Assembly (NCBI GenBank): GCA_963712745.1 | Contig: CAVQJC010000018.1 | Coordinates: 1 to 53,285, forward strand | DNA length: 53,285 nucleotides | Direction: 5' to 3' | From: an uncultured Chloroflexia bacterium | Lineage (GTDB): Bacteria > Chloroflexota > Limnocylindria > Limnocylindrales > CSP1-4 | Part shown: positions 4,074 to 20,583 of the stretch, in pieces | Numbering within the stretch: the stretch's first letter is position 1 | How the letters are laid out: each line of letters opens with the position of its first letter | Position numbers and translations under genes: made by a program | The notes under the pieces: generated by a model | Seen by the model: only the letters and a program-made list of their open reading frames with translations | The model's database searches: none | What the model was told of the DNA's origin: nothing

Positions 4074-4832
4074 TCAGAGCTCGGCGATCAGGGTGAGGGC
4101 GACCTCAAAGATCTCGTCTTCGGCGCGGTCGAAGGCCGTCTGCTGGTGCTCGGGCAACCGGTCGAGGAACGTACGTTCCGACAGGACCTCGTCCCAGGCC
4201 ACGAGCATGGAGACCCCCGCAGCCCCGAACGTCCTCGCGACCGCCAGCGTGGCGGCTGTCTCCATGTCCACGCCCAGGTAGCCCTCGTCCGACCACCTGC
4301 GCAGGAGGTCGACCGGCTGATTGAAGAGCGTCGGCCAGGTCACGCTTGGTCCCTGGTGGGCCGTCACGCCGTGCCGTTCCAGCAGGGCCGCCGCACGATC
4401 GGACCACTCCCCCGACGAGGCCACGCGAGCATCCGTCGAGTAGAGCGCCGTCGTCCCGTCCAACCCCAGGGCTGCGGTCGGGACCACCACATCACCTGGA
4501 CGCACGCCGGCTCCGATCACCCCACAGCTGCCCATCTGGATCGCCAGCCGTGCGCCGACGAGGGTCGCGACCTGGACGATCTCGGCGGTCCGCGGAGCTC
4601 CGTAGGGACAGGCGTAGATCAGTCTTCGCCCCGCGGAAGACCCGATGTAGACGTCAGGGATCCCGAGCTCCCGGACCGACTCCAGCCGCTTCAGGCGACG
4701 GTGTGTGTGCTGTGCGCGCCACCAGGTGCCCTCGACCACGACAGCGACCGGCCGATCATCATCAGCCAGCCCCAGCACGGTTCGCCAGGCGACCGCGTCG
4801 ACTTCCCCGACGGGACCGAGGTCAGAGCTCAT
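4074..4832 (-). CDS. Nucleoside phosphorylase family protein (PNP/UDP-like)
   Basis: PYGAP, IQMGSCG, PGDVVVPT and GVDMETA motifs; start uncertain (4832 or 4874). Confidence 0.8.
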   Translation of the reverse strand: MSSDLGPVGEVDAVAWRTVLGLADDDRPVAVVVEGTWWRAQHTHRRLKRLESVRELGIPDVYIGSSAGRRLIYACPYGAPRTAEIVQVATLVGARLAIQMGSCGVIGAGVRPGDVVVPTAALGLDGTTALYSTDARVASSGEWSDRAAALLERHGVTAHQGPSVTWPTLFNQPVDLLRRWSDEGYLGVDMETAATLAVARTFGAAGVSMLVAWDEVLSERTFLDRLPEHQQTAFDRAEDEIFEVALTLIAEL

Positions 4833-4860
4833 CCCAGACCCAGGCAAGGCCGACGGCAGA

Positions 4861-5904
4861 TCAGCCGGGCACACCCGTGGCTGATCCGACCCGTGCTCGT
4901 CGCACTTCGGCAGCGACCTTCTCCGGCGAGGGGATGTAGGCGTCCTCCAGCGGCGGGCTGAAAGGCACTGGCATGTGCGGCGCAGTCACGAGGCCGACCG
5001 GTCCGCGCAGCGCCTCGAAGGCCTCCGACGCCACGAGCCCGGCGATGTCGGTCGCCAGCGAGCAGCGCGGGTTGGATTCGTCCACGACGACCAGGTGGCC
5101 GGTCTTGCGCACCGAGCGGATGATGGTCTCGAGGTCCAGCGGCGACATCGTGCGCGGGTCGATGACCTCGGCCGATACGCCCTCTTGAGCCAGCCCATCG
5201 GCCGCCTCGACCGCGGTGTGCACCATCTTCTGGATGCCCACGATGGTCACATCGTTACCCTCGCGAACGACCTTCGCCACACCGAAGGGGATGGTGTACG
5301 ACTCCTCGGGCACGGGGCCTTCCCGCATGTACAGCCGCTTGTGTTCGATGAAGATGACCGGATCAGGGTCGCGGATGGCCTCGATCAGGAGCCCCTTGGC
5401 GTCGTACGCGGTCGACGGCGCGACCACCTTCAGCCCGGGCACATGCGTGTACAGCGAGTACAGCGCCTGCGAGTGCTCGGCCCCGGCACGGAAGCCGGCA
5501 CCAGCGACGGTGCGGATGACCATGGGGATCGAGACCTTGCCGCCGTAGACGTAGCGCATCTTGGCGGCCTGGTTGAAGACCTGGTCGAACGAGGTGCCGA
5601 TGAAATCGATGTACATGATCTCGGCCACCGGCCGTAGCCCGGCATAGGCAGCACCGATCGAGGCGCCGATGAAGCCGGTCTCGGCGATGGCGGTGTCGAT
5701 GACGCGCTCGCGCCCATAGCGCTCGAGCAGCCCCTTGGTCACGCCGAAGGGCCCACCCCAGGCATCGGCCGCGTCGGGATGCTCCTGGTCACGGCCGGCG
5801 CCACCGGCGATGTCCTCGCCGAAGAGCACCACGCGCTCGTCAGCGGCCATCTCCTGCATGAGCGCCTCGTTGATGGCGTCCTTGATGTTCAGTTCGCGGG
5901 TCAT
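4861..5904 (-). CDS. TPP-dependent 2-oxoacid/acetoin dehydrogenase E1 beta subunit (AcoB-like)
   Basis: GEDIAGG..DAWGGPFGVTKGL, DTAIAE, GAEHSQ, DPDPVIFIEHK, PVPFSPPLE. Confidence 0.9.
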   Translation of the reverse strand: MTRELNIKDAINEALMQEMAADERVVLFGEDIAGGAGRDQEHPDAADAWGGPFGVTKGLLERYGRERVIDTAIAETGFIGASIGAAYAGLRPVAEIMYIDFIGTSFDQVFNQAAKMRYVYGGKVSIPMVIRTVAGAGFRAGAEHSQALYSLYTHVPGLKVVAPSTAYDAKGLLIEAIRDPDPVIFIEHKRLYMREGPVPEESYTIPFGVAKVVREGNDVTIVGIQKMVHTAVEAADGLAQEGVSAEVIDPRTMSPLDLETIIRSVRKTGHLVVVDESNPRCSLATDIAGLVASEAFEALRGPVGLVTAPHMPVPFSPPLEDAYIPSPEKVAAEVRRARVGSATGVPG

Positions 5905-6878
5905 CGGGCTCCCTCCGGCCAGGTCGTGTACACGTCGGCGGTCATGTCCTCGGTGCTGGGCCAGTCGGCCTCGCGGGCAGCAGCCCAGGCGGCGTCCACC
6001 TCTCGCTGCGCGTCCTCGTCGATGCCATCGAGGTCGGCCGCATCGATGCGCCCCGCCACCGCCCGTCGGAAGAAATCGAGCGGGTCCTTGGCTCGCCAGC
6101 GCTCGACCTCGAAGGGCGGCTTGTAGGTCTGCGTGTCGCCCTCGTACTGGCCACCGTAGCGGTAGGTCATGGCCTCGATGAGCGAGGGGCCGCCACCGGA
6201 GCGCGCCCGCTCGATGGCCCGCTCGGTCGCTCGTCGCACCTCGAAGACGTCCATGCCGTCGACCTGCACCGCGGGGATGCCATAGGGCGTGGCCATGGCC
6301 GTCACCGAGCTGGCGTTGAGGTGGTAGTCGACCGCGGTGGTCTCCGCGTAGAGATTGTTCTCGCAGACGAAGATGACCGGCACCTGCAGCAAAGCCGCGA
6401 AGTCGAGCGCTTCATGCCAGGCGCCCTGGTGGACCGCACCGTCCCCGAAGAAGCTCACGGCCACACGATCCTGCCCCAGGCGCTGCGCGGCGAAGGCGGC
6501 ACCGGCCGCGATGGGCAGCCCGGCGGCCACGATGCCCATGCCGCCGATCATGCCCAGGTCCTGGTCCGCGACATGCATCGACCCGCCGCGCCCGTAGATG
6601 ACGCCGGTCTGCCTGCCCAGCAGCTCGCCGGCGACGGCCTCGAGGGGCATCTCACGCGCGATGGCGTGGTGATGGTTGCGGTAGGTGGTGGTGAACCAGT
6701 CGTCGTCGCGCAGGAGGGCGATGACACCGACCGCGGTGGCCTCCTCTCCGTAGGCGGTATGCGTGTAGCCCTCGGTGCGCTTCTCCATGGTCTCGAGGTG
6801 GACGCGCTCCTCGAAGCGCCTGATACGGACCATGCGCCGCCACAGATCCAGCAGCGTGGCCCGTTCGAGTTCAGACAT
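5901..6878 (-). CDS. TPP-dependent dehydrogenase E1 alpha subunit (AcoA-like)
   Basis: GRGGSMH, TPP motif FFGDGA...ENN, VDGMDV, GGGPSLIEAMTYR; RBS AGGAGG upstream. Confidence 0.9.
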   Translation of the reverse strand: MSELERATLLDLWRRMVRIRRFEERVHLETMEKRTEGYTHTAYGEEATAVGVIALLRDDDWFTTTYRNHHHAIAREMPLEAVAGELLGRQTGVIYGRGGSMHVADQDLGMIGGMGIVAAGLPIAAGAAFAAQRLGQDRVAVSFFGDGAVHQGAWHEALDFAALLQVPVIFVCENNLYAETTAVDYHLNASSVTAMATPYGIPAVQVDGMDVFEVRRATERAIERARSGGGPSLIEAMTYRYGGQYEGDTQTYKPPFEVERWRAKDPLDFFRRAVAGRIDAADLDGIDEDAQREVDAAWAAAREADWPSTEDMTADVYTTWPEGAR

Positions 6879-6923
6879 GGGTCCCCTCCTCCTTGTCGAT
6901 GCCTGGCAGGTGGATGTGAGCGG

Positions 6924-7908
6924 TCATGAAGGTGCTCCTTCAGGTTGGACCACCGCGTGCTGCAGCGGCTCGCCGGCCTGCCAGCGCGCGATGTCGTCGA
7001 TGATCATGCGGGCGTGATGTCGCCGCACGTCGTCGGCTGCGCCGGCCACATGCGGCGTGATGGTGACGTTGTCGAGCGCGCGGATGGGGTGGTCAGCTGC
7101 CAATGGCTCCTCCCAGAAGACGTCGAGGGCGGCGCCGGCGATGTCGTGGTGGCGCAATGCCTGCAGCAGCGCCGTCTCGTCCACCACCGCGGCACGGGCG
7201 GTGTTGACCAGGACGGCCTCGGCGCGCATGAGCCCGAGCTCGCGTTCGCCGATGAGCCCGCGCGTCTCGGGCGTCAGCGGGCAGTGGATGGAGACCACGT
7301 CCGAGCGCACCAGCAGCTCATCGAGGGCCACCAGTCCCACACCCCCGGGGGCGGTGGCGACGAAGGGGTCGAAGGCCAGGACCGACATGCCGAACCCCCG
7401 GGCGCGGTCGGCCACGAGCCGGCCGATGGCGCCGAGCCCTACGAGGCCGATGGTGCGCCCATCGAGCTCCGGCCCACGGAAGTGGAAGTAGGGCAGATCG
7501 CCATCGACCATCCAGCCGTCTTCGCGCAGCTGGCGCTCCGCGCGCCCGAGGCCGCGGCAGTGGTCCAGCAGCAGGCCCAGCGTGAAGTCAGCCACCGAGA
7601 TGGCATTGCGGCCGGGCGTCGCCAAGACCGTGACCCCGTGACCGGCGGCGGCGACGAGGTCGACGTTGGTGGGGTTGCCCCGGCAGGAGGCCACCAGGCG
7701 GACGCTGCGGGCAGCGGAGAACACGGACTCATCGACCCGCTCGAGCTCGCAGATGAGGACTCTCGGTGTCATCGAGAGCAGCGATGAGCTCGGCCTCGGT
7801 CATGGCCTCACGGGTCACGCCCCAGCCCGCGTGCACGGGTCGGTAGCCGAGCGACGCCAGCTCGTCGAGCCCGTCTGGCGGGAACTCGGCAGTGACGAGT
7901 GCCCTCAT
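6924..7908 (-). CDS. D-isomer-specific 2-hydroxyacid dehydrogenase (frameshift near 7762)
   Basis: N-terminus MRALVTAEF... from ATG 7908 (ATGA overlap with the kinase stop) continues in another frame as VLICELE...GLVGLGAIG, NTARA, DVFWEEP, TPHVAG. Confidence 0.85.
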
Positions 7909-9362
7909 GCCGTCCAGCCTGGGAGCGCCCCGCGCAGTGCCTCGCCGGCGGCGATGTATCGCATGTAGCCCTCCTCGAGCGCGTCGCTGTCGCGGGGTTC
8001 GATGGTGTCGCCGATGAAGGCGGGTGGTTCGGCCGCCGTGGCCGGGTCCGCGTCCGCGGAAGCGGCCAGCCAGGCGAAGGTTCGGCCGGCTGGGTAGTCG
8101 CTGGCCACGCGGCCGATGGGCCGGCCGGTGACGTCGGCCACGAGTTGGGTGAACGTGCGGGAGCGGGCGGCGCCGCCGAGCAGACAGACCCGCCTCGCAG
8201 GCGTACCGGTGGCGCGTTCGAGGTCTTCGAGGTTGCCGCGGATGCCGTAGGCGTGGGCCTCGATGAAGGCTCGGGCCACATCGGCCCGGACATGTCCGGG
8301 CTCGAAGCCGATGAGCCCGCCGGGAGCTCGACTGCTCCAGGTCTCCTCGCTCCAGATCCTGGCCGTGACGGCGGCAGTGACGCCGTTGGCGCCGGGTGCT
8401 GACGTGGCCGCCTCGTCGGCCAGCGTCTCCACGCTGGTGCCGCTGATGCGCGCGAACCAGTCGAGGCTCATGCCGGTGTAGCCGGCGTTCGTCTCTGCGG
8501 CCCACCGGTCGGGACGCAGATGGGCGCTGACCCAGGGGTGCTGTTCGGGGTCGCGAGGGAACGCCGCGGTGCTCGCCTGGAGCGGGGTGGTGGTGCCGGC
8601 CACCACGCTCACCACGCCCTCGGCCAGCCCGCCCGCGCCCGTGGCGGCGAGCTGCGTGTCACCACCTCCGGCGATGACGTCGAGGCCGCTGGGCAGGCCC
8701 AGCTCGAGGTCCCGCAGCCTCCCCACCCGCGCCCCGGCATCGACCAGCGCCGGCAACATGGCCGGGTCGAGGTCGAGCGCCTCCAGGATGTCTGTCGCCC
8801 AGGTCCGTCGCTGGACATCGAGCAACTGACCCGCGGAGGCCATCGAGGGCTCGCTCACGCGCTCACCGCAGAGTCGCCATAGCGCCCAGTCGTGGACGAA
8901 GAGCATGGTGCGGGCCCGCTCCAGCCGGCCGCGACGCTGCTCCTCGAGCAGCTTGGGCAGGGTCAGTTGCGGCGCGGACCAGTGGCCGGTGACCTCGTAG
9001 AGCCGCTCCCGGCCGATGGCTTCGCGCACCCGCTCAAGGTGGTCCGCCCCGCGGCGATCGGCATTGACTACCCCTGGCGCCAGCTCCCGGTCTTCGGCAA
9101 GCAGGACATAGCCCTGGCGCAGTGAGGTCACGCTGACTGCCGCGTAGTCATCCTTCGGGCGAGCGGCCCGGGCCACGGCCGCACGCATGGCGGCAGCTGC
9201 GGACTGCCACCAGGCGTCGGGGTCGAACTCGGCCCGGCCCGGCGCCGGATGCTGGGTCTCGGTCGGCTCCTGGGCCAGGGCCAGCACCTCGCCGCGTTCG
9301 ACGTCGGCCACGCAGGCCTTGACGGCCCCGCCTCCGAAGTCGAGCCCGGCCACCAGCGGCAT
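7905..9362 (-). CDS. FGGY-family carbohydrate kinase (LsrK/YoaC-like)
   Basis: GLDFGGGAVKA, TSLRQG, DRRG, GGGDTQ, AGTT, GGAARS. Confidence 0.88.
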   Translation of the reverse strand: MPLVAGLDFGGGAVKACVADVERGEVLALAQEPTETQHPAPGRAEFDPDAWWQSAAAAMRAAVARAARPKDDYAAVSVTSLRQGYVLLAEDRELAPGVVNADRRGADHLERVREAIGRERLYEVTGHWSAPQLTLPKLLEEQRRGRLERARTMLFVHDWALWRLCGERVSEPSMASAGQLLDVQRRTWATDILEALDLDPAMLPALVDAGARVGRLRDLELGLPSGLDVIAGGGDTQLAATGAGGLAEGVVSVVAGTTTPLQASTAAFPRDPEQHPWVSAHLRPDRWAAETNAGYTGMSLDWFARISGTSVETLADEAATSAPGANGVTAAVTARIWSEETWSSRAPGGLIGFEPGHVRADVARAFIEAHAYGIRGNLEDLERATGTPARRVCLLGGAARSRTFTQLVADVTGRPIGRVASDYPAGRTFAWLAASADADPATAAEPPAFIGDTIEPRDSDALEEGYMRYIAAGEALRGALPGWTA

Positions 9363-10018
9363 CAGGTCTTGCCGTAGCCCTTGCCGGCCGCTTCCAGTCC
9401 GCGGATCCACTCCATGTACTCGGGCGGCGTGACGGTATCGGTGTCGCCCAGTCCGGTCGCCCGGTAGGTAGCCATGGCCGCAGCCTCGAGGTTCATCGCG
9501 CGCTGGTAGGCCAGGTCGGCCGCGTCGGCCACGAGCAGGCAACCGTGGTGCTTGAGCAGCACGACCTCGGCGCCATCGAGCTGCTCGGCCACGGCCGCGG
9601 CGAGCTCGGGACTGCCGGAGTTGATGTAGGGCACCTCGTGCAGTTCGCGCACGTAGTAGGCATGGTCGGTGGTGAGGTGTCGGATGGGCGTACCCACCGC
9701 GTGCAGTGTCGTCGACACCGGCGGGTGCAGGTGGAAGACGTAGTTGGCGTCGGATCGGGCGCCGTAGGCCGCGGCGTGCATGGGCCACTCACTCGAGGGC
9801 TTGAGGCCCCCGTCGATCACGGTCCCATCGAAGCCGACGCGCACGAGCTGGTCGGGTGTCAGCTCGGCGATGCTGTAGCCACTGGGCGTGATGAGGAAAC
9901 CCTCGCCACCAGGCAGGCGGCCCGAGAGGTTACCCCCGGAGCCGACCACCAGCCCCGCGGTCACGAGCTTCTGGCCCTGGAACAGCAGGGCTTCGGCGAT
10001 GGTTCGTTCGTCGGTCAT
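9362..10018 (-). CDS. Class II aldolase/adducin family protein (FucA-like)
   Basis: GSGGNLS, ITPSG, PSSEWPMH, HLH and LKHHG metal-binding motifs. Confidence 0.9.
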   Translation of the reverse strand: MTDERTIAEALLFQGQKLVTAGLVVGSGGNLSGRLPGGEGFLITPSGYSIAELTPDQLVRVGFDGTVIDGGLKPSSEWPMHAAAYGARSDANYVFHLHPPVSTTLHAVGTPIRHLTTDHAYYVRELHEVPYINSGSPELAAAVAEQLDGAEVVLLKHHGCLLVADAADLAYQRAMNLEAAAMATYRATGLGDTDTVTPPEYMEWIRGLEAAGKGYGKT

Positions 10019-10057
10019 GGCGGTGCGTTCCCTCTCCTCTGGGTCGGCGGCCCCTGC

Positions 10058-11098
10058 CTAGGCGTTGGGCCGCAGGATGGTCTTGAGCGTCATCAGAGCC
10101 TCGTCGCGAGACTCCTCGAGAGCCGAGCCCACCTCGGCCAGGGGGTAGCTGGCGGTGACCAGGCGGCGGCCGTCGACCGCACGCGCGGCCAGCAGCTCGA
10201 GCGCCAGCCCGAACTCGGTGGGCGCCAGATGTCCACCGCGGATGTCGAGTTCCTTGAACTCGGCCACGGTGTTCCAGTCGACCGTCGCGCGCTCGCGGTA
10301 GACGCCGTAGAGCGTGATACGGCCGCCGGGGGCGACAGCATCGAGGGCCAGGTCGACCGAGGCCGTGACGCCGGTGAAGTCGACGTAGTGGTCGGGCCCG
10401 ATGCCCTCGGTCCGCTCACGCAGCTCGTCCGCAGCGTCGCTGGTCGTGACGTCGATGGCCTCGGTGGCTCCCAGCCGGCAGGCGATCTCGGCGCGCTCAG
10501 GCGTGGTCACGAGGGCCACGATCTGGCGCACGGGCTTGACCGCGGCGACGTACGCGAGCGCGCCCGCGCCGATGGCACCGATACCACTGATGACGATGGT
10601 CTCGCCCTCGGCCGGGTCGGCCCGCTCGATGGCGTGGATGCCGCAGGCCAGCGGCTCGGCCACGACGGCCTCCTCGGGAGCCAGGCCATCAGGGACGCGC
10701 CACACGCGGGCCTCGGGCGGGATGGCCATGCGCTCGGCCCAGCCACCGGGCAAGCTGCTGCCGATGTGCCGGCCATTCCGACAGAGGTGGAACCGTTCGC
10801 GCCGGCAGAGCGGGCAGACGCCGCAGGGCACCATGACCTCGTTGACGACCAGGTCGCCCTCGGCAACGCCCCAGCGTGCGCCGGCACCATCGTCGAGCTC
10901 GACGATGGTGCCCACGTTCTCGTGGCCTGGTATGAAGGGGAACGTCAGCTCCCATGGCGAGTCGCCCTTGTAGATCATGCGATCGGCGGCACATACGCCT
11001 GCGGCCTCCATGCGTACCACCGCGCCTCTGTCGAGGGTCGGGCCGGGCACATCTTCGACGCGGAAGTCGCCGGCGCCGTGCGCCACGACCGCTCTCAT
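10058..11098 (-). CDS. Zn-dependent (MDR) polyol dehydrogenase, erythritol/threitol dehydrogenase-like
   Basis: GVCAAD, PGHE, CGVCPLC...C structural Zn site, EPLAC, GIGAIG, TVDW...KELDIRGGHL. Confidence 0.85.
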   Translation of the reverse strand: MRAVVAHGAGDFRVEDVPGPTLDRGAVVRMEAAGVCAADRMIYKGDSPWELTFPFIPGHENVGTIVELDDGAGARWGVAEGDLVVNEVMVPCGVCPLCRRERFHLCRNGRHIGSSLPGGWAERMAIPPEARVWRVPDGLAPEEAVVAEPLACGIHAIERADPAEGETIVISGIGAIGAGALAYVAAVKPVRQIVALVTTPERAEIACRLGATEAIDVTTSDAADELRERTEGIGPDHYVDFTGVTASVDLALDAVAPGGRITLYGVYRERATVDWNTVAEFKELDIRGGHLAPTEFGLALELLAARAVDGRRLVTASYPLAEVGSALEESRDEALMTLKTILRPNA

Positions 11099-12986: not shown

Positions 12987-13942
12987 GCGCGTCCGATACC
13001 CCCGACTGCTGCCTGGTCGCCACTCAGATACCGCGAGGTCAGGACCATGAGCACGATGGCAGGCGCGATGAAGAAGAGGCTCAGGGCTGCCGCGATGGCC
13101 GGATCCGAGCCCACGAACTGGAACAGCAGGAGCGGCAGCGTGACCACGATCCCACCCCCGATGAGCACGGTCATGATGTACTCGCTCCAGCTGATAAGGA
13201 AGGCGAAGAAGGCGGCTACCATGAGTCCAGGCAGCACGGCGGGGAAGGTGACGTGCAGGAAGACGCGCAGCGGATTCGCGCCCAGTACCCTGGCCTGCTC
13301 CTCGTAGCTCGTGTCGTAGTTGGCGAAGACGGCGCCCATCACCAGCACCACGTAGGGGATGGTGGGGATGAGGTGCACGAGGACCACTCCGGGGATCGTG
13401 TCAGCCAGCGAATAGCGGATGAACATCACCTGGATGCCCATGGCGACGGCGATGGCCGGCACGATGACCGGTGCCAGCAGGACGAGCTCCACGATGCGCT
13501 TTCCGCGGAAGCGGTAGAGGCCCAGCGCTCGGCCGCCGGCCAGGCCGATGGCCGCGGCGAGCACGGCCACCGCGACGGCGATGATGAGGGAGTTGACGAG
13601 GCCCTCCATGACGCCCGAGCGCTCGGAGAGGATGTAGGACCAGGCGCGGTCAGAGAGCTCGTCCGGCAGGATGGTCGGGAAGAACCAGCGATGACTGATG
13701 GACCAGAAGATGAGCGGCACGAACGGCAGCAGCAGCAGGAAGCACATCACGGCCACGAGCACGTAGCGGCCGAGGTGACGCTTGGGCTTGGGTCCGGGCA
13801 TGGTCTCCGCTGGATCCTCGCGGTCGAGCCGGGTGTCGGGTGGCATCAGGCCGGTCTCGCCGGTGATGTTGCGCTGCCCCCTGGTGATGCTCCGCTCGTC
13901 ACCGGGGTCGGGGCGGCCGGTGGTGTCACGCTCGATGTTCAC
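12983..13942 (-). CDS. ABC transporter permease
   Basis: TM helices and EAA-like loop EEQARVLGAN. Confidence 0.92.
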   Translation of the reverse strand: MNIERDTTGRPDPGDERSITRGQRNITGETGLMPPDTRLDREDPAETMPGPKPKRHLGRYVLVAVMCFLLLLPFVPLIFWSISHRWFFPTILPDELSDRAWSYILSERSGVMEGLVNSLIIAVAVAVLAAAIGLAGGRALGLYRFRGKRIVELVLLAPVIVPAIAVAMGIQVMFIRYSLADTIPGVVLVHLIPTIPYVVLVMGAVFANYDTSYEEQARVLGANPLRVFLHVTFPAVLPGLMVAAFFAFLISWSEYIMTVLIGGGIVVTLPLLLFQFVGSDPAIAAALSLFFIAPAIVLMVLTSRYLSGDQAAVGGIGRA

Positions 13943-14841
13943 GACTCACTCCGGACGTAGCGGCGAGAGAGCCAGGTGTAGGCGAACACGGCCACGGCGG
14001 TGATGACGGCGATGACCATGCTGATGGCCATGGCCTCCGACCGCGCGTTGAGGTCGACGTCGGTAAAGGCGCGATACGCGAGCACGGGCAGCGCCGCGGG
14101 ATAGGGCTGTCCCAGCAGGAAGGGCACCTCGAAGGCGCCGAAGCCGAAGGCGAAGACGATGACCGAGGTCGACACGATGGCCGGCGTGATGAGCGGCAGG
14201 ATGACGTGCCAGAAGCGCTTCCAGCGACCGGCGCCCAGCGTGCGCGCGAGGTCCTCGTAGTCGCCCACCCCGCGGGCCAGCGCGGCGAGGACGACGACCC
14301 CGATGAAGACCGTCTCCTTCCAGACGTACTCGGCGATGATGCCGACGGCGCCGCGGTCGTTGGTCAGCGCCGGGAAGTCCCCCGGGGAGTCGGTCAAGCC
14401 CAGCGCGAACCCGATGCGCGACAAGAGCCCGCCCTGGGCCAGCAGGAAGAGCATGGCCACCGCGCCGACGATATGCGGGATGGGCAGGTTGAACTGGTAG
14501 ATGAAGGTGGTGACCCGTCGACCGCGGTCGGTGTGGTAGATGAGCAGTGCGGTGCCCACGGCCAGCACGATGGAGATGATGGTCGAGACGAAGGCGATGT
14601 AGAGCGACAGTCGCAGGGACTCCCAGAAGACCCGGTCATTGAAGATCTCGACATAGGCATCGAGATTGGCGTCGGTCCGGCCGATGAGCGGCATGTAGTT
14701 GAGGCTCTGGAGGAATCCCAGGACCAGACCACCCATGAACAGGACGATGACCACGGAAAGGGCAGGCGCCAGCAGCAACCAGGGCCGGGTCCAGTCGGGG
14801 AGACGCCGACGTCGACGCCTCCCCGTGGTGGTCGCAGTCAC
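13939..14841 (-). CDS. ABC transporter permease
   Basis: TM helices, EDLARTLGA and FGAFEVPFLLG. Confidence 0.92.
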   Translation of the reverse strand: MTATTTGRRRRRRLPDWTRPWLLLAPALSVVIVLFMGGLVLGFLQSLNYMPLIGRTDANLDAYVEIFNDRVFWESLRLSLYIAFVSTIISIVLAVGTALLIYHTDRGRRVTTFIYQFNLPIPHIVGAVAMLFLLAQGGLLSRIGFALGLTDSPGDFPALTNDRGAVGIIAEYVWKETVFIGVVVLAALARGVGDYEDLARTLGAGRWKRFWHVILPLITPAIVSTSVIVFAFGFGAFEVPFLLGQPYPAALPVLAYRAFTDVDLNARSEAMAISMVIAVITAVAVFAYTWLSRRYVRSES

Positions 14842-14885
14842 GTGTCGCTAGCGGCGAAACGGACAGCTATGGCTCGCTCGCGAGG

Positions 14886-16106
14886 CTACTGCTGCAGCAC
14901 GTTCTCGGTCCAGCCGGCCTCGGTAGCCAGCAGCCAGTCTGCCTGCAGCTCCGGGTTGGCGTTCTTCACCAGCTCGGCGTTCGGGAGCACGCTGTCCGGC
15001 ACCGGGATGGCAGCGTACGCGTCAGCCAGGTCGGTACGGCCGAAATCGATGACCGGATCGGCGCCCCAGACGAGGGGGTCCGCCTTCTCCAGCTGCGCCT
15101 CCGGCGACAGCAGGATGTCCGCCACCACCTGCGCACCTGCCTGGTTGGCGGCGTTGTAGGGGATGGCCACGAAGTTGTTGTTACCGATGGTGCCGTGGTC
15201 AAAGACGAACTCGCGAGTCGTCTCGGGGAAGATGCCACGCTCCACCTGGCCGCCGACCTCGCCGGGACCGTAGGTCATGGTCATGGCGATCTCGCCGTTG
15301 GAGAACAGGTTGTCCAGCTCTTCCTTGGTCTGCGGATAGGTCTCGCCACCGCGCCAGAGGGAAGGCTCGATGCCGTTGAGGATCTCCCAGGTCTTGGCCG
15401 AAGCCTCGTCGAACTTGGCCTGGTCGAACTCGCCGAGCAGGTCCGCATAGCCACCGTTGGCGTGGTAGAGCACGTGGCGGACGAAGACGGAGCCGGTGAA
15501 GTCCGGGGGCGCCGGGTAGGTGAACATGCCCGGGTTGGCCTCGATCCACTCAAGCAGCTCGCCCATCGAGGCGGGTGGCTCTTCGACCTTGGCGGAGTCG
15601 TAGACGAACGCGAACTGCGCGTGGCTCCACGGCGATTCGCAGTCGTCGACCGGCGTGCCGAAGTCGGTGTTGATGGCGTCGGTCTCCTCCACGTACTGGC
15701 GGTTCGGCAGGCCCGATGCCCATCCGCACAGCAGCAGGTCGGCCTGCTTCGCGGTCTTGAAGTTCTCGCCGTTGATCCAGACCATGTCGACCGAGCCGTC
15801 CGCGTCGCGGCCGGCTTCCTTCTCGCCGAGGACCTTCTGGACGATCTCGGCCGCGTCACCAGGGACGCGGTTGAGGGTGATCCCAAGCTCGGCCGCCTTG
15901 TCACCGACGTAGTCGTCGACGTAGGCGTTGATGGCGTCGCTGCCGCTCCACATGTGGAAGTTGACGGTCTGACCCTCAGCCTCGGCAAGGATCGCATCCC
16001 AATCGGCCATATCGTCCTGTGCCACGACGGGCGCAGCGACAGCTGCCAGGCTGAGGCTCAACAGGCCAGCCATCCCGAGCCAGAGTGTTCGGTTCCCTGT
16101 TCGCAC
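14886..16106 (-). CDS. ABC transporter substrate-binding protein (YnjB-like)
   Basis: GTG 16106 after GAGGAGG; signal peptide; GQTVNFHMWSG, DMVWINGENF, FTYPAPPDFTG, GTIGNNNFVAIP. Confidence 0.88.
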   Translation of the reverse strand: MRTGNRTLWLGMAGLLSLSLAAVAAPVVAQDDMADWDAILAEAEGQTVNFHMWSGSDAINAYVDDYVGDKAAELGITLNRVPGDAAEIVQKVLGEKEAGRDADGSVDMVWINGENFKTAKQADLLLCGWASGLPNRQYVEETDAINTDFGTPVDDCESPWSHAQFAFVYDSAKVEEPPASMGELLEWIEANPGMFTYPAPPDFTGSVFVRHVLYHANGGYADLLGEFDQAKFDEASAKTWEILNGIEPSLWRGGETYPQTKEELDNLFSNGEIAMTMTYGPGEVGGQVERGIFPETTREFVFDHGTIGNNNFVAIPYNAANQAGAQVVADILLSPEAQLEKADPLVWGADPVIDFGRTDLADAYAAIPVPDSVLPNAELVKNANPELQADWLLATEAGWTENVLQQ

Positions 16107-16152
16107 GTTAGACACCTCCTCTGCCCGCGGCCGTCCTTGTCGGCCGGTGGCA

Positions 16153-16926
16153 CTACTGTCCGTTCGGTGCCACGGCGGCCATGGAACGCCGCCAGATGAC
16201 ATCCGAGTGTTGCGGGACCCCCCAGGTCGCTTCCTCGTAGATGATCGGACTGCCGTCTCGGTCACGTAGCACACACGTCTTGCGGATGACCGGACTGTTG
16301 TCGGGCAGCTCGAAGATCCCTTGGACCTCCTCGTCGGCGATTACGGCGGTCGCCACCTCCTCTCCGTCCTGGAGTGGCACCGGATGATGCCGTTCGATGA
16401 GTCGGTACAGACTCTGGTCGAGGCCGCTGCGGGCCAGATCGTCTGGTGCGATATCCGGCAAGACAAGTGCCGGGATGTAGGCATCCGACAGGTACACCGG
16501 CTCGTCATCCACCGTGCGCACACGCTTGATGTGCACCAGCCGGGCGTCGTCCGCGAGGCCCAGCTGGCGGGCGGCGCCGGCCGGGCCACGCGCGGTGTCG
16601 AAGGCGATGAGCTGGGCGCCTGGCGTGTGGCCGCGGCGCAGCACATCGCTGGTGAACGAGAGCAGGCACTGGGCGTTCGCGCGCGACGGATCGGCCACGA
16701 ACGTGCCCACACCCTGGTGGGTGGTGACGAGGCCTTCGCGCTGCAGCTCGGCGATGGCTCGGCGCACGGTGATGCGGCTGAGGGCGTGTTCATCGATGAG
16801 CTCGGATTCGGAGGGGAAGAGGTCCCCGGGATGGAGCTCGCCGCGCTCGATGCGGTCGCGCAGGACCGTCCGGAGTCGCTCGTACAGGGGCACGCGACCC
16901 GCCATGCCGGCGGTCTCCTCCTTCAT
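16153..16926 (-). CDS. GntR family regulator (HutC/UTRA type)
   Basis: PSESEL, SRITVRRA, GVGTFV, SFT and a UTRA-like C-terminus. Confidence 0.92.
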   Translation of the reverse strand: MKEETAGMAGRVPLYERLRTVLRDRIERGELHPGDLFPSESELIDEHALSRITVRRAIAELQREGLVTTHQGVGTFVADPSRANAQCLLSFTSDVLRRGHTPGAQLIAFDTARGPAGAARQLGLADDARLVHIKRVRTVDDEPVYLSDAYIPALVLPDIAPDDLARSGLDQSLYRLIERHHPVPLQDGEEVATAVIADEEVQGIFELPDNSPVIRKTCVLRDRDGSPIIYEEATWGVPQHSDVIWRRSMAAVAPNGQ

Positions 16927-16933
16927 GTCGATA

Positions 16934-16965
16934 CGTTATAACGAGTGACAAGCACCTTGTCGGAC
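16934..16965 (-). promoter_or_regulatory. Promoter (CCGACA-N17-TATAAC) overlapped by palindrome CGTTATAACG, candidate GntR operator
   Basis: Perfect 10-bp palindrome at 16934-16943 fits the GntR GT(N)xAC pattern; the -10 hexamer lies 8 nt from the ATG. Confidence 0.55.
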
Positions 16966-16973
16966 GATTCCGC

Positions 16974-18068
16974 TCAGGGTGCCTTCTGCAGCTTGCGGTA
17001 GAAGTCGCGGAAGACCTCGTCGCGGTCGATGCCCACCGCTTCGCGGATGAGGTGGCGGCCGTCGGGGTGCCGCCACAACAGGTCGTCGTCGAGCACCGGT
17101 GAGGGCGTGAGCCGCGAGGGCACCCACTGGGGCTGCATCAGCCAGGCGAAGCAGATGAGGTCCCAGATGACCCAGGTGCGGTCGGCCGGGTCGGTGATAC
17201 CGCGCTGGGCGCGGATAGGGTTGTGCACGTAGAGGTGGTAGAGGTAGTCGCCGATGCGACCGCGGCCCTTGACCCAGCGTTCCATGTCCGGCAGCGAGAT
17301 GGTCAGCTGGGCACCGATGTAGAACCCCGGCAGATAGACCAACGGCACGCCGCAGTCGAAGAGCAATCGGGAGGCCGGCACGTCCTGGACGAGGTTCAGC
17401 GAGGGTCGACTCGAAAGCGGGCTCCACGACGGGTAGCTGGAGGTCCAGACGACCACGATGCGCTCGATGATGCGCGGCTCGATGAGGATGGCCGAGGCGA
17501 TGTTGGTGACGGCCCCGATGGCGGCCACGTAGAGCGGCCGGTCGTCCTGGGACATGGCGCGCTCGATGAGGTGCTCGGCCGCCTCCGTCCGGACCGGCTC
17601 GTTCGGACCGGGCAGATAGCCGGGCGTGCCCCGGAAGACCTGGCCCGCGGGATCCTCTCCCAGCAGCTCGTAGACCTTGATGGCCTCCTGATAGCCGAGC
17701 TCCATGCCCTCGGCGGGCCCGACGAAGGACACGTCGTACGGGTCGGTGCCGGCGGCGATGAGGTTGCGGGCCCAGGCGTGATAGCTGCCTACGATCGCGA
17801 CCTCGGGACCCTCGCTGCGCTCGTGGCGCCGGATCTCCTCGTACGCCTTGAGGAGCGGTTCGCGATGATGGGCGAACGAGAAGGGCTCGATGAGCGTGCC
17901 CTCGATCTCGAAGACGTCCCCGGAGAGCAGGGCCCAGGCGATGGCGAACTGATCGTCGATCTCATTAGCCGTGTCGCTGTCGATGATCAGGCGGACCGGG
18001 CCCGTCGGCGGCTCCAGCATCCGCTCCAGGCGATCGGGCGACAGCACCGGGAAGACAGGTCCGTTCAT
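16974..18068 (-). CDS. Nucleoside hydrolase (inosine-uridine-preferring family)
   Basis: DSDTANEIDDQFA, IGAVTNIASA, NLVQD, VIWD; RBS GGAGGAGG. Confidence 0.88.
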   Translation of the reverse strand: MNGPVFPVLSPDRLERMLEPPTGPVRLIIDSDTANEIDDQFAIAWALLSGDVFEIEGTLIEPFSFAHHREPLLKAYEEIRRHERSEGPEVAIVGSYHAWARNLIAAGTDPYDVSFVGPAEGMELGYQEAIKVYELLGEDPAGQVFRGTPGYLPGPNEPVRTEAAEHLIERAMSQDDRPLYVAAIGAVTNIASAILIEPRIIERIVVVWTSSYPSWSPLSSRPSLNLVQDVPASRLLFDCGVPLVYLPGFYIGAQLTISLPDMERWVKGRGRIGDYLYHLYVHNPIRAQRGITDPADRTWVIWDLICFAWLMQPQWVPSRLTPSPVLDDDLLWRHPDGRHLIREAVGIDRDEVFRDFYRKLQKAP

Positions 18069-18259
18069 CGTCCTCCTCCAAGACTCGGGCATCGCGGCCG
18101 CGGCACGGTCTGATGATGCCGCATCGGCCGGCTCTCGTCGTACTTGCCAGTGTCCGCAGCGCTGGCTTCACCCCATCGGTCGACCAAGGCAGTGTGGTCA
18201 AGGCGCCGTCGGTACCGCTACTCTCCGGGTCTACGTGTCAGCCGCCAACAGAGGAGGCC

Positions 18260-19150
18260 ATGGGCGAACGGATCGGGCTGATCGGCTTCGGGATCATGGG
18301 CGCGGCCATGGCGAGCCGCTTCCTCGACGCCGGCCATGAGGTCGTCGTAGTCGACACCGAGGTCTCGGCGCGCGACCGGGCCCGGGACCTTGGTTGCGAG
18401 GTCGCCGCTGCGCCGGCGGCCGTGGGCGAGGTCGCCGACATGATGGTGGTATCGCTGCCTCGAGCGGAGCACGTTGCCGGCGTCGTTCGGGGCACGGACG
18501 GGTTGCTCAGCACCGCCGCAGCCGGAAGCGTGATCGTGGATACCAGCACCATCGACCCCGAGACCACGCGGGCCAACGCGGCGGCGGCTGCCGTGAACGG
18601 CGTGGGCTACCTCGACGCGCCGGTGCTTGGGCGTCCTCGTGGTGTTGGCGCGTGGACCCTGCCGGTCGGCGGCGAGGAGGCCGATCTGCGTCGGGCCGAA
18701 CCGGTACTTCGGATCATCGCCACGCGGATCGTGCATGTGGGTCCGGCCGGCCGAGGCAACACCGTGAAACTGCTCAATAACCTCATGTTCGGCGCCATCA
18801 ACGCCGCGACATGCGAGATGTTCGTGCTCGCCGATCGGCTGGGGATGGACCGACGGCTGCTCTTCGACACGATCGTGGACAGCGGCGCAGCGACGGTGAG
18901 CAACCTCTTCCGCGAGCTCGGGCCCAAGATCATCGAGGGCGACTTCGACCCGCAGTTCAGCATCGACAACCTCGAGAAGGACATCAGCCTCGGATTGGCG
19001 ATGGCGCGTTCGGCAGGCCTGACGCTCGAGGTCGGCGAAGCCGGTCAGCGACTGAACCAGCGGGCGCAGGCTTCGGGACACGGGAGCGAGGACTCTGCCG
19101 CGGTGGTGGAGGCGGTCGGCGCGGCACCAGGGGGCGGCGACCACCGATGA
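18260..19150 (+). CDS. Beta-hydroxyacid dehydrogenase (3-hydroxyisobutyrate/tartronate semialdehyde reductase family)
   Basis: IGFGIMG, DTSTI, DAPVLG, KLLNN, KD motifs; RBS GAGGAGG. Confidence 0.9.
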   Translation: MGERIGLIGFGIMGAAMASRFLDAGHEVVVVDTEVSARDRARDLGCEVAAAPAAVGEVADMMVVSLPRAEHVAGVVRGTDGLLSTAAAGSVIVDTSTIDPETTRANAAAAAVNGVGYLDAPVLGRPRGVGAWTLPVGGEEADLRRAEPVLRIIATRIVHVGPAGRGNTVKLLNNLMFGAINAATCEMFVLADRLGMDRRLLFDTIVDSGAATVSNLFRELGPKIIEGDFDPQFSIDNLEKDISLGLAMARSAGLTLEVGEAGQRLNQRAQASGHGSEDSAAVVEAVGAAPGGGDHR

Positions 19151-20583
19151 AGTCGATCGAGCTCGACTACGGCAGCGATCGGTTGCCGGTGGAACTGCCG
19201 GCTAGCGCCGTCGTGGTGCGCTACGGCGAGACGTACACCGATCAGCCCGCAGTGGACCCGGCGGAGGCGACCCGCGCGGCCCTCGATGCTCCGCTCGGCA
19301 TCCCGCCCCTCACCGAGCTTTCCGGCCCGGGTCGCAAGGCGGTCATCGTCTTCCCCGACCGCGTGAAGGGTGGCGCCCATCCCCTGGCCCACCGACGCGT
19401 GTCGATCCCGGCCATCATCGACGATCTGCTCCGAGGCGGCAGCCGCATCGAGGACATCTCACTGCTGTGCGCTCAAGGGCTACACCGGCGCAACACGCAC
19501 GAGGAATGGCTCGAGTACCTGGGCCCGGAGATCGTCGACCGCTTCTGGCCTGACCGCATCACCAACCACGACGCGGAAGGTGACGATCTCCTCGACCTGG
19601 GCATCGACGAGATGGGCAACGCGGTCCAGACGCACCGCGCCATCGCCGACGCGGACGTGGCGGTGCTGGTCGGTCACTGCGCGGCCAACCCATATGGGGG
19701 TTTCAGCGGCGGCTACAAGATGCTCGTCACCGGTCTCGCCGGACGCGCCTCGATCGCCAGCCACCACAACCCAGGCACGATGCATCGCGCCGACTGGCTC
19801 GGTGGCGCCATCGAATTGCACATGCGCCACCAGTTCCGATCCATCGGCGAGGCCATCGAGGATGGCATCGGCAAGCGGGTCTTCGCGGTCGATGCGGTGC
19901 TGGGGCAGTTCGGTGAGGTCCTCGACGTGCAGGCGGGCTCGATCGCGGAGGTCGAACGCGCTACCTGGCCGCTGGCGAAGCGACGCGCGGAGGTGGTGGT
20001 CGACGAGCTCGAGCAGCCGGCGGACATCCTGCTCGTCGGGCTGCCGCGCGACTTCCACTACGGACCGGGCATGGGTACCAACCCGATCCTGATGAGCCTC
20101 GCCATCGGAGCCCAGTACTCGCGTGCGGCACGGGCGCTGCGGCCGGACCCGGTGGTCATCGCGATCGCCGCCTGTGACGGCTGGTTCAACGCAGACTGGT
20201 TCCCGTCGTACGAGGAGACGTACGAGGCACTCCAACGCTACGACACGGCGGCGGCCTTCCTCGCGTCCGAGGATGCCGAGCGGATCTCGACCGATCCGGC
20301 CTACTGCGCGAGCTACTCCACGGGCTATACCTATCACCCGTTCCATGCCATGTCGATGGTCTCGGGCGGCGCCGTACCGCTCAAGTGGTGCTCGCAGGTG
20401 TACCTGGTGGGTGCGGAGCGGCCTCGCTACGCGCGCGGCATGGGCTACCGTACGTTGCCGACCGTGGCTGATGCCCTCAAGGACGCCGAGCGGTACGTGG
20501 GCTCGAATCCGCGCGTCCTCGCGACGCCCGAGTGCTACTCAGGCGGCATGGCCGTGAACCTCATCGCGGCCGGGGCGGCATGA
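19147..20583 (+). CDS. LarA-family (nickel-pincer nucleotide) protein
   Basis: ALDAPLG, GLHRR, NHD, GFSGGYK, IASHH; ATGA-coupled to the upstream dehydrogenase. Confidence 0.85.
   Translation: MKSIELDYGSDRLPVELPASAVVVRYGETYTDQPAVDPAEATRAALDAPLGIPPLTELSGPGRKAVIVFPDRVKGGAHPLAHRRVSIPAIIDDLLRGGSRIEDISLLCAQGLHRRNTHEEWLEYLGPEIVDRFWPDRITNHDAEGDDLLDLGIDEMGNAVQTHRAIADADVAVLVGHCAANPYGGFSGGYKMLVTGLAGRASIASHHNPGTMHRADWLGGAIELHMRHQFRSIGEAIEDGIGKRVFAVDAVLGQFGEVLDVQAGSIAEVERATWPLAKRRAEVVVDELEQPADILLVGLPRDFHYGPGMGTNPILMSLAIGAQYSRAARALRPDPVVIAIAACDGWFNADWFPSYEETYEALQRYDTAAAFLASEDAERISTDPAYCASYSTGYTYHPFHAMSMVSGGAVPLKWCSQVYLVGAERPRYARGMGYRTLPTVADALKDAERYVGSNPRVLATPECYSGGMAVNLIAAGAA

Follow-up and report, generated by a model that had tools for sequence, protein, structure and literature searches.

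A Chloroflexota gene cluster that may import and degrade a ribofuranoside, and its mosaic relatives across phyla

The window analyzed here is an entire contig of 53,285 bases (C18) from the genome of an uncultured Chloroflexota bacterium (G000; 4.2 Mb, 84.55% complete, about 68% GC). Pfam and NCBIfam scans revealed 14 minus-strand genes and two divergent plus-strand genes at positions 4074-20583. We propose, with a probability of about 0.5, that this cluster is an operon under GntR control for the catabolism of an imported ribofuranoside (either a nucleoside or a nucleoside-like glycoside), the sugar of which is degraded outside the ordinary ribokinase/pentose-phosphate route. Rather than being confined to this organism, the cluster represents one variant within a large mosaic family.

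In the proposed route, a YnjB-type binding protein and a PotABC-like ATP-binding cassette (ABC) importer would take up the compound, a divergent enzyme with the nucleoside hydrolase fold would cleave its glycosidic bond, and a PNP_UDP_1-family enzyme could provide a second cleavage of the ribosyl bond, all three with support at the family level. The free sugar would then be converted into a ketose by a TIM-barrel enzyme, phosphorylated by an FGGY kinase, and split by a FucA/DrdA-type aldolase into dihydroxyacetone phosphate (DHAP) and a short aldehyde. A Zn dehydrogenase, a 2-hydroxyacid dehydrogenase and an E1 alpha/beta pair without E2 may carry the small fragment towards acyl-CoA.

Organization of the gene cluster

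Family calls were based on Pfam gathering scores and NCBIfam curated cut-offs for 17 open reading frames (ORFs) of the window, which cover all 16 genes; model scores are given below in bits versus cut-off. The two scans agree on the genes and families named in the initial annotation, which had been made from the sequence alone:

4074-4874, minus: PNP_UDP_1-family protein, last gene of the operon (Pfam, 82.4 bits)
4861-5904, minus: E1 beta (Pfam Transket_pyr and Transketolase_C)
5901-6878, minus: E1 alpha (Pfam E1_dh, 257.9 bits)
6924-7908, minus: D-2-hydroxyacid dehydrogenase, frameshifted (Pfam 2-Hacid_dh_C, 200.4 bits, C-terminal piece)
7905-9362, minus: FGGY sugar kinase (Pfam FGGY_N and FGGY_C)
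9362-10018, minus: class II aldolase, FucA/DrdA-type (Pfam Aldolase_II, 145.7 bits)
10058-11098, minus: Zn-dependent medium-chain dehydrogenase (Pfam ADH_N and ADH_zinc_N)
11095-11943, minus: AP_endonuc_2 TIM-barrel enzyme, putative sugar isomerase/epimerase (Pfam, 122.1 bits)
11940-12986, minus: ABC ATPase with a TOBE_2 domain (Pfam ABC_tran and TOBE_2)
12983-13942 and 13939-14841, minus: two ABC permeases (Pfam BPD_transp_1)
14886-16115, minus: secreted substrate-binding protein, YnjB type (NCBIfam NF008633)
16153-16926, minus: GntR/HutC-type regulator (Pfam GntR, 66 bits; UTRA, 91.5 bits)
16974-18068, minus: nucleoside-hydrolase-like protein of 364 amino acids, first gene of the operon (Pfam IU_nuc_hydro, 45.8 bits)
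18069-18259, no strand: divergent intergenic region of 191 bp, presumed promoter/operator, between two start codons with Shine-Dalgarno sequences
18260-19150, plus: HIBADH-family (beta-hydroxyacid) dehydrogenase (Pfam NAD_binding_2 and NAD_binding_11)
19147-20583, plus: LarA-like protein (Pfam Lar_N, 115.2 bits)

The overlapping start and stop codons and the divergent dehydrogenase-LarA pair described in the initial annotation were confirmed by direct reading. Stop and start codons overlap at seven minus-strand junctions and at the HIBADH/LarA junction, making the two plus-strand genes a translationally coupled pair. The overlap is GTGA between the two permeases, ATGA at the HIBADH/LarA junction, and ATGA or GTGA at the permease/ATPase, ATPase/TIM barrel, TIM barrel/Zn dehydrogenase, FGGY kinase/2-hydroxyacid dehydrogenase and E1 alpha/E1 beta junctions. 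Between aldolase and FGGY kinase, the stop of the former and the ATG start of the latter are fused in TGATG. The hydrolase starts at ATG 18068 (upstream sequence GGAGGAGG) and the HIBADH gene at ATG 18260, after AGGAGG. The start of the binding protein is GTG 16115 or 16106, after GGAGG, and its N-terminus resembles a signal peptide; the PNP-like gene starts at GTG 4874 or ATG 4832.

Gaps of 37-47 nt lie between hydrolase and GntR, GntR and binding protein, binding protein and permease, and 2-hydroxyacid dehydrogenase and E1 alpha, and a gap of 39 nt separates the Zn dehydrogenase from the aldolase. No terminator-like site was found in any gap; the region has four in total, all inside genes, compared with an average of 3.3 in shuffled sequence. 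A promoter-consensus scan returned no promoter-like site, and the divergent region holds only one weak palindrome (18169-18194). Scanned at gathering thresholds, the whole window matched no Rfam family and so offered no riboswitch clue. The flanking genes (a CMAS methyltransferase, DUF1295 and a PPDK_N/phosphoenolpyruvate (PEP)-utiliser protein) are unrelated, which indicates that the cluster boundaries are right. Taken together, the data support the view that the minus-strand genes form one co-transcribed catabolic unit.

Conservation among Chloroflexota

Relatives of the TIM-barrel gene were sought in one genome per species. Cluster loci are present in three other Chloroflexota species represented by metagenome-assembled genomes (MAGs; loci L002, L003 and L004), and the nearest cluster-bearing relatives are MAGs labelled Chloroflexia or Anaerolineaceae. 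The whole minus-strand order is kept in L002 and L004, and in L003 up to the contig end, with amino-acid identities of 65-93%. Recurrence of the same order shows that the arrangement is more than chance, and the idea of a single catabolic unit put forward in the initial annotation thus stands. When 400 other genomes of the same phylum were sampled for the TIM barrel at E<=1e-20, none had a match, including none of the 23 of the same family. The cluster is therefore conserved but patchy.

Two differences were noted among the close relatives. The HIBADH-LarA pair is present in L002, whereas in L004 nothing beside the cluster matches the pair at more than 45% identity; the pair adjoins the hydrolase solely in the closest relatives (both genes in L002 and L012, the HIBADH gene in L013). 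A 2H phosphoesterase gene (PF13563, 2'-5' RNA ligase superfamily, 76.2 bits) separates E1 beta from the PNP-like gene in L002 (17099-17656) and L003 (10786-11400); the window lacks it at that place, where its E1 beta and PNP-like genes overlap.

The 2-hydroxyacid dehydrogenase gene of the window is split over two frames. Its N-terminal piece (7732-7908) lies in another frame than the C-terminal piece, with a 1-nt insertion near 7760 (7730-7775) relative to L002, L003 and L004, in which the gene is intact and encodes 323-327 amino acids. Four other window genes are also divided between frames, i.e., MR_MLE (25229-26453), an SBP_bac_1/8 binding protein (27477-29038), LacI (30879-32001) and GH1 (36347-37772), and L004 has similar breaks in three cluster genes. 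The intact orthologues, the other split genes and the breaks in L004 make an assembly indel likelier than a true pseudogene. The frameshift is thus probably an assembly error, and the pattern suggests that indel errors are frequent in the assembly of the window.

A mosaic family with a shared core

Hydrolase relatives on plasmids were sought by tblastn, which gave six records. Three of these are Rhodobacterales plasmids, from Marinovum algicola DG 898 (pMaD8), Paracoccus seriniphilus DSM 14827 and Parasedimentitalea marina W43, and they carry one common cluster. It consists of a PotA-like ATPase, a 'COG4134-type' binding protein and two permeases followed directly by the hydrolase, together with a GntR regulator, a 470-amino-acid protein annotated as 'L-fucose isomerase' or hypothetical, a sugar isomerase/epimerase, DhaL, DhaK and a 'tagatose-1,6-bisphosphate aldolase'. 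An aldehyde dehydrogenase, an AMP-dependent ligase, a small protein, a thiolase and a major facilitator superfamily (MFS) transporter are usually present as well. The window proteins share 51-53% identity with the plasmid ones for the hydrolase, 33-35% for the binding protein, 38-40% for the permeases, 39-42% for the ATPase and 28-30% for GntR; the ATPase is 42% identical to that of the Marinovum cluster.

A profile scan of metagenome contigs with the hydrolase gave 257 relatives, and 80 loci were kept. For neighbourhood counts, ORFs were called and clustered in the 57 loci of at least 6 kb, the 23 shorter ones being dropped. With L002-L004, the three plasmid loci and the window, this made 64 sources, 62 of which contain the hydrolase. 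The nucleoside-hydrolase-like protein, the YnjB-type importer and the GntR regulator form a core that crosses phyla. The genes found with the hydrolase, as numbers of the 62 sources (not independent, many loci being near-duplicates), were:

ATPase, 43
binding protein, 37
GntR, 33
LacD-type aldolase, 29
Dak1, 29
476-amino-acid isomerase-like protein, 29
psicose-3-epimerase-like TIM barrel, 24
aldehyde dehydrogenase, 19
E1 beta, 18
E1 alpha, 16
PNP-like, 16
thiolase, 15
AMP ligase, 15
HIBADH family, 15
short-chain dehydrogenase/reductase (SDR), 11
MR_MLE, 10
GMC oxidoreductase, 9
GH51-like, 8
Bmp/PnrA binding protein, 5
GH42, 4
ADP-ribosylglycohydrolase, 3
sulfatase, 3

The genes of the window that seemed out of place are part of this pattern. 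Blocks of hydrolase, PNP-like, E1 alpha and E1 beta genes were found in four metagenome loci (L044, L057, L073 and L086), and L089 reaches E1 alpha before the contig ends. The window shares 74-78% identity with those four blocks in E1 beta, 66-68% in E1 alpha and 43-47% in the PNP-like protein. Because E1 alpha, E1 beta and the PNP-like gene recur beside the hydrolase in distant contigs, these genes belong to the system.

The sugar-processing enzymes, by comparison, are exchanged. LacD and Dak1 occur together in 25 sources, and the window enzymes have only distant marine counterparts for the TIM barrel (24% identity) and HIBADH (26-33%). The FGGY kinase has no counterpart inside the marine clusters, the class II aldolase and the 2-hydroxyacid dehydrogenase have no match there at all, and the Zn dehydrogenase has a single match of 31%, beside the hydrolase in L061. 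The Chloroflexota version thus appears to use an FGGY kinase in place of the DhaK/L kinase and a predicted class II aldolase in place of the LacD class I aldolase, and no counterpart of the FucI/SftI-like isomerase was found in it. The ribulose (3R,4R) configuration is the one accepted by FucA/DrdA-type aldolases, whereas class I aldolases of the fructose and tagatose type accept 3S, and this would account for the ketose 3-epimerase-like enzyme found alongside the LacD-type aldolase. That the same hydrolase and importer stand beside non-homologous isomerases, kinases and aldolases of the same three kinds reinforces the sequence of import, glycosidic cleavage, isomerization, phosphorylation and C-C cleavage proposed in the initial annotation.

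The E1 genes and the ligase/thiolase module were never seen together: none of the 18 E1-beta sources and none of the 15 thiolase/ligase sources carries both. This suggests, as a lead given the truncated contigs and duplicates, that the two are alternative routes of the same small product to acyl-CoA. The best model for the ligase of the sister clusters is acetate-CoA ligase (368 versus 729).

Other combinations were also observed. Five loci (L035, L037, L038, L040 and L042) have a Bmp/PnrA-type binding protein and an SDR upstream of the hydrolase, a PemK/MazF-like toxin gene nearby and no YnjB-type importer. The full system is present in low-GC marine contigs of streamlined-looking genomes (L041, GC 0.29; L069-L082, GC 0.33-0.36), with GH51-like, ABC importer, isomerase-like, E1 alpha/beta, GntR, hydrolase, TIM-barrel, DhaL/K, LacD, aldehyde dehydrogenase, HIBADH, MR_MLE and GMC genes. 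The MR_MLE gene of the window was considered as a member of the marine MR_MLE module and was rejected (26% identity over 192 residues).

The importer

The binding protein passed NF008633 (PRK11622, YnjB type; 477.2 versus 203), a model at the subfamily level. Its AlphaFold2 (AF2) model has a mean predicted local distance difference test (pLDDT) score of 85.0, and its structural neighbours are PhnS, FbpA, PotD, ThiB, AgtB and AfuA-type proteins. As a clue to the ligand the structure was set aside, since these neighbours span binders of phosphonate, iron, polyamine, thiamine, opine and sugar phosphate and indicate a class, not a ligand. A PDB sequence search with the binding protein gave no match, and a literature search found no substrate reported for YnjB. 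Among the 52 invariant columns of 15 orthologues, there is no Arg, Lys or His, while eight are Asp/Glu and 11 are aromatic, suggesting that the ligand may be neutral or cationic. The nearest NCBIfam models for the permeases are PotB/C, PhnU/V, ModB and CysT, all below cut-off. Compared with E. coli YnjBCD, the binding protein belongs to the same subfamily, whereas here there are two separate permeases and the genes lie in a sugar-catabolic operon.

Enzymes predicted to cleave the ribosyl bond

The hydrolase passed IU_nuc_hydro (PF01156; 45.8 versus 34.2), with a sub-threshold match to Sde182_NH-like, and scored 28-32 bits against the RihB, RihC and UriH equivalogs, the cut-offs of which are 382-459. 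Its AF2 model has a pLDDT of 88.4, and the Foldseek PDB matches listed for it are all nucleoside or riboside hydrolases (TM 0.56-0.76, 11-17% identity). In the ESM Atlas it falls into 'nucleoside hydrolase family protein' clusters, and its family comprises at least 5245 proteins at E<=1e-10 among 7999 candidates scored. D30, D32, D38 and D39 are invariant in the family and are spaced DxDx5DD (DSDTANEIDD), i.e., with five instead of three residues before the Asp pair; we take DxDxxxDD to be the N-terminal calcium-binding motif of IU-type nucleoside hydrolases. In a profile alignment to YeiK (about 15% identity), the canonical AEFN reads PSLN, with Ser223 and Asn225 invariant, and the Asn of GN.TP is not conserved; a W-D pair, aligned by eye with HD, is invariant. 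In the Crithidia enzyme, the Glu of AEFN and the Asn of GN.TP presumably bind the ribose 5'-OH, and the residues kept here presumably hold the 2',3'-diol and calcium. If these residue roles hold, the alignment hints that the subfamily may read the diol but not the 5'-OH.

The PNP-like protein scored 36-39 bits against the DeoD models, which have cut-offs of 230-338. Profile alignment to structures of purine nucleoside phosphorylase (PNP) matched its DMETA with VEME(A/T), the Met-Glu ribose pair, and its WDE with the Asp of SDH. The Arg aligned with the first phosphate Arg is kept, and YGAPR contains a further, new Arg that is invariant. Gln replaces the Arg of RVG(S/T)CG, which is presumably part of the phosphate site of PNP, in 14 of 15 members of the family. 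The protein could be either a phosphorylase or a hydrolase. In a whole-genome search, 5'-methylthioadenosine (MTA) phosphorylase (TIGR01694) and MTA/S-adenosylhomocysteine nucleosidase (TIGR01704) had no match on contig C18 at E<=0.001. The names 'nucleoside hydrolase' and 'nucleoside phosphorylase' given in the initial annotation therefore hold for superfamily membership, whereas both proteins are distant members that reach no equivalog.

Isomerase, kinase, aldolase and dehydrogenases

At the NCBIfam level, no enzyme of the cluster reached an equivalog cut-off; only the binding protein and E1 beta passed a model, both at the subfamily level. The enzymes consequently do not cluster with any characterized pathway at the level of NCBI naming. 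The best PDB matches of the TIM barrel are ketose 3-epimerases (about 48 bits), and its best NCBIfam model scored 48 versus 300. The best model for the Zn dehydrogenase is threonine dehydrogenase (161 versus 458), that for the 2-hydroxyacid dehydrogenase scored 220 versus 454, and that for the HIBADH protein is tartronate semialdehyde reductase (178 versus 341).

For the aldolase, all NCBIfam models are below cut-off (FucA, 99.8 versus 264; OtnC, 92.7 versus 250). The PSSE glutamate and the HxH and HHG metal-binding histidines align with DrdA and FucA, and the best PDB match is 6BTD (91.7 bits), with FucA at 81.4 bits. According to PMC6079011, 6BTD is DrdA, a 5-deoxyribulose-1-phosphate aldolase with Glu76 as the base, and 5-deoxyribulose-1-phosphate is inferred there to be 3R,4R. 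The models nearest to the FGGY kinase are XylB (231.9 versus 380) and LsrK (157.1 versus 528), and its best solved relative is LsrK 5YA0 (137 bits). Scores against the C1 kinases are lower (FucK, 80.2 versus 470.9; RhaB, 66.9 versus 527.95).

The E1 pair and the LarA-like protein

E1 beta passed NF006667 (343.4 versus 321), and E1 alpha failed TIGR03182 (316.2 versus 393.85); the best solved relative is human pyruvate dehydrogenase E1 alpha (176 bits). The Pfam scan found no E2 or E3 in the cluster. Four E2 genes (PF00198) lie elsewhere in G000, on contigs C11, C14 and C20, and three of the four are near other paralogues of E1 beta. The E1 domains are the same as in pyruvate and acetoin dehydrogenases; the differences are that E2 and E3 are missing from the locus and that the E1 pair is linked to the hydrolase and PNP-like genes across phyla. 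As a side observation, G000 has seven further E1 beta paralogues, 45-50% identical to that of the cluster, with the E1 beta/E2 genes on contigs C5, C11, C14 and C20, a set of 2-oxoacid dehydrogenase components that is unusually large for a 4.2-Mb genome.

In the initial annotation, the acid product of the pathway was thought to be racemized, which now appears doubtful. The LarA-like protein shares the Lar_N domain with the LarA nickel-pincer racemases, whereas its best NCBIfam model is LarAH14/15/16 (189.9 versus 740), and all LarA-family cut-offs were widely missed. LarC was not found in any of the four carrier genomes (G000, G401, G402 and G403); LarB had no match and LarE none above cut-off in G000, which at 84.55% completeness does not prove absence. 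Moreover, the cluster of L004 lacks the HIBADH-LarA pair at its side, and none of the 56 hydrolase-bearing sources outside the clade of the window yielded a LarA gene. Downstream of the LarA-like gene, at a distance of 2.4 kb and beyond the PPDK_N/PEP-utiliser gene, is a HupE/UreJ nickel/cobalt permease gene (23004-23651, plus, 181.7 bits).

Comparison with known pathways

The cluster resembles parts of several known systems and equals none of them, as the initial annotation had stated. The L-fucose/L-rhamnose route consists of an isomerase, an FGGY kinase, a class II aldolase and an aldehyde reductase. The window shares with it the FGGY kinase, the Aldolase_II protein, an alcohol dehydrogenase for the aldehyde and the order of reactions; however, the FucA, FucK and RhaB cut-offs were missed, the isomerase is not FucI or RhaA, and entry would be as a glycoside via the hydrolase-fold enzyme. 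Sulfoglycolysis by the Embden-Meyerhof-Parnas-type pathway (sulfo-EMP) uses an isomerase, a kinase, the LacD-family aldolase YihT and the HIBADH-family reductase YihU. Here the likeness lies in the marine sister clusters, which have a LacD-family aldolase, a HIBADH protein resembling sulfolactaldehyde reductase (280 versus 348) and the 476-amino-acid protein, a remote SftI-like match to sulfoquinovose isomerase (86 versus 700). The window, in contrast, has a class II aldolase and an FGGY kinase, and there is no sulfoquinovosidase, the scores are below equivalog and there is no sign of a sulfonate. For the tetronate pathways (Otn/Ltn/Den), besides the low OtnC score, OtnI scored 35.3 versus 325 and LtnD 150.4 versus 350, and DUF1537 was not found in the cluster.

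Full-text literature searches found no description of the window cluster or of the Rhodobacterales one, although subscription journals and supplements could still hold one; this agrees with the earlier view that the pathway is undescribed. In the accessible part of PMC9038784, the only 'nucleoside hydrolase' is the ordinary iunH of Ruegeria pomeroyi.

The substrate

The cluster and its relatives point to ribosides in several respects. In addition to the fold of the hydrolase, Bmp/PnrA binding proteins (five loci), ADP-ribosylglycohydrolase (three, directly before the hydrolase in L020, L024 and L027) and the 2H phosphoesterase of L002 and L003 fit this theme. Within the ribosides, a 5'-deoxy or 5'-substituted compound (5'-deoxyadenosine or MTA type) would be the most economical substrate class, although it leaves several genes unexplained. 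The operon might then be a free-sugar analogue of the DHAP shunt, in which, according to PMC6079011, nucleoside cleavage (MtnN or MtnP) is followed by formation of a ketose 1-phosphate (MtnK/DrdK and MtnA/DrdI) and its splitting by a FucA-type class II aldolase (Ald2/DrdA) into DHAP and a small aldehyde. In the window, the base would be released by the hydrolase-fold enzyme, the free sugar isomerized by the TIM barrel and then phosphorylated by the FGGY kinase. The ABC importer, E1 alpha/beta, the 2-hydroxyacid dehydrogenase and the LarA-like protein are extras that the shunt lacks. The substrate class is the weakest inference of our analysis. One hint for it is the seemingly changed 5' pocket of the hydrolase; another, for an acetyl-yielding fragment, is the DrdA kinship of the aldolase together with the aldehyde dehydrogenase, acetate-CoA-ligase-like enzyme and thiolase of the sister clusters. 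A by-product of S-adenosylmethionine (SAM), as suggested in the initial annotation, is one candidate among several.

A number of observations weigh against the ribofuranoside proposal or its 5'-deoxy form. The DHAP shunt has MtnK/DrdK and MtnA/DrdI (IF-2B), neither of which is among the 17 ORFs scanned; the IF-2B family gene of G000 lies on another contig, and the true MtnN (114.2 versus 73.8) is on C1, outside the cluster. The residue alignment of the hydrolase rests on about 15% identity. The aldolase has Thr where DrdA and FucA have Tyr, and its preference for DrdA over FucA is small (91.7 versus 81.4 bits). XylB and LsrK phosphorylate the far end of a ketopentose, and the kinship of the FGGY kinase to them would fit terminal CH2OH phosphorylation better than C1, which counts against a simple analogy to the DHAP shunt. 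The 2-hydroxyacid dehydrogenase, HIBADH, LarA-like and E1 proteins are not needed for a plain 5-deoxyribose route and keep no assigned role in it, and a module for 2-hydroxy and 2-oxo acids thus accompanies the operon unassigned. The co-occurrence counts include many near-duplicate metagenome loci from similar samples. Some relatives have GH42, GH51 or sulfatase genes as neighbours, which suggests an O-glycoside or oligosaccharide as substrate. A route from 5-deoxyribose to 1-deoxyxylulose 5-phosphate (DXP) by reduction, oxidation, the FGGY kinase and an AraD-like 4-epimerase, appealing in principle, was considered and not adopted; it found no support, and the aldolase keeps the FucA-type Glu.

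Alternative explanations

The alternative that survives best, which we regard as rather unlikely, is an O-glycoside or oligosaccharide with a cis-2,3-diol furanose (for example a 5-substituted riboside of the arsenosugar type, an apiofuranoside or another ribofuranoside) instead of a nucleoside. The hydrolase-fold protein would then be a furanosidase, and the remaining enzymes would degrade the unusual sugar and a hydroxy-acid or polyol aglycone, which could give roles to the 2-hydroxyacid dehydrogenase, HIBADH and LarA-like proteins. Consistent with this, GH42 directly follows the hydrolase in four loci (L020, L024, L028 and L034), GH51 ArfA-like genes (220 versus 625) occur in eight sources and sulfatases in three, and the LacD-type aldolase and the sulfoglycolysis-like HIBADH and isomerase-like proteins of the marine clusters fit as well. 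However, none of those glycoside hydrolases and sulfatases is present in the window cluster or in L002-L004, and all structural neighbours listed for the hydrolase act on N-ribosides. The Bmp/PnrA, PNP-like, ADP-ribosylglycohydrolase and 2H genes likewise point to nucleoside or nucleotide chemistry, and we know of no O-glycosidase with the nucleoside hydrolase fold.

Ordinary nucleoside or ribose catabolism seems improbable. In that case, ribose or ribose-1-phosphate, set free by the hydrolase and the phosphorylase, would pass through ribulose-1-phosphate to DHAP and glycolaldehyde, and the dehydrogenases, E1 and HIBADH would serve glycolaldehyde, glycolate and glyoxylate. Matches in this direction are those of the aldolase to the haloarchaeal ribulose-1-phosphate aldolase model (86.8 versus 300), of the 2-hydroxyacid dehydrogenase to glyoxylate reductase (204.8 versus 455), of the TIM barrel to hydroxypyruvate isomerase (40.9 versus 353) and of HIBADH to the tartronate semialdehyde reductase given above, but all four fall well short of the curated cut-offs. 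The residues aligned with the canonical Glu and Asn are lost in the hydrolase subfamily, and a dedicated high-affinity importer with a 14-gene operon would be redundant with ribokinase, a gene that was not searched for.

It is quite improbable that the cluster is a patchwork of separate units, i.e., a polyol- or tetritol-type sugar operon, a spare pyruvate/acetoin dehydrogenase E1 and stray nucleoside enzymes. The five intergenic gaps of the minus-strand run (four of 37-47 nt and one of 39 nt), the great variation of gene sets around the hydrolase between lineages and the seven further E1 beta paralogues of G000 would agree with such an origin. Against it stand the whole order conserved in L002 and L004, the gaps free of terminator-like sites, and the E1 (66-78%) and PNP-like (43-47%) genes that recur beside the hydrolase in phylogenetically distant contigs.

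Processing of autoinducer 2 (AI-2, DPD) or S-ribosylhomocysteine is very improbable: LsrK is the second-best model (157 bits) and the best solved relative (5YA0, 137 bits) of the FGGY kinase, but its cut-off of 528 is far off, the Pfam scan found no LsrF, LsrG or LsrACDB-type genes in the cluster, and its importer belongs to the PotABC/YnjB type rather than to the Lsr type.

Another gene of the window

Apart from the cluster, the window carries a heliorhodopsin gene at 39514-40332 on the plus strand (Pfam PF18761, 300.1 bits).

Implications

A broader proposal, which we consider speculative and on balance unlikely in its full form, is that the clusters of soil Chloroflexota, roseobacter plasmids and mostly marine contigs (GC 0.29-0.69) represent one unrecognized, globally distributed system for degrading 5'-deoxy or 5'-substituted ribosides (5'-deoxyadenosine, MTA, arsenosugar- or sulfonium-type compounds). 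Its defining features would be a new nucleoside hydrolase subfamily, in which the 5' pocket is remodelled, and the YnjB-type importer, and the E2-less pyruvate-dehydrogenase-like E1 would be an alternative to the acyl-CoA ligase/thiolase for converting the deoxy end into acyl-CoA. If this is true, YnjB-type (COG4134-type) ABC importers would gain their first assigned function, and a function would be assigned to a large nucleoside hydrolase subfamily, that of the at least 5245 relatives. The recurrence of the system in mostly marine contigs and roseobacter plasmids may mark a widely used dissolved organic compound. One catabolic logic rebuilt from unrelated enzyme families across lineages would furthermore be a clean case of non-orthologous replacement, and because sister clusters sit in three cultivable strains, the system is testable.

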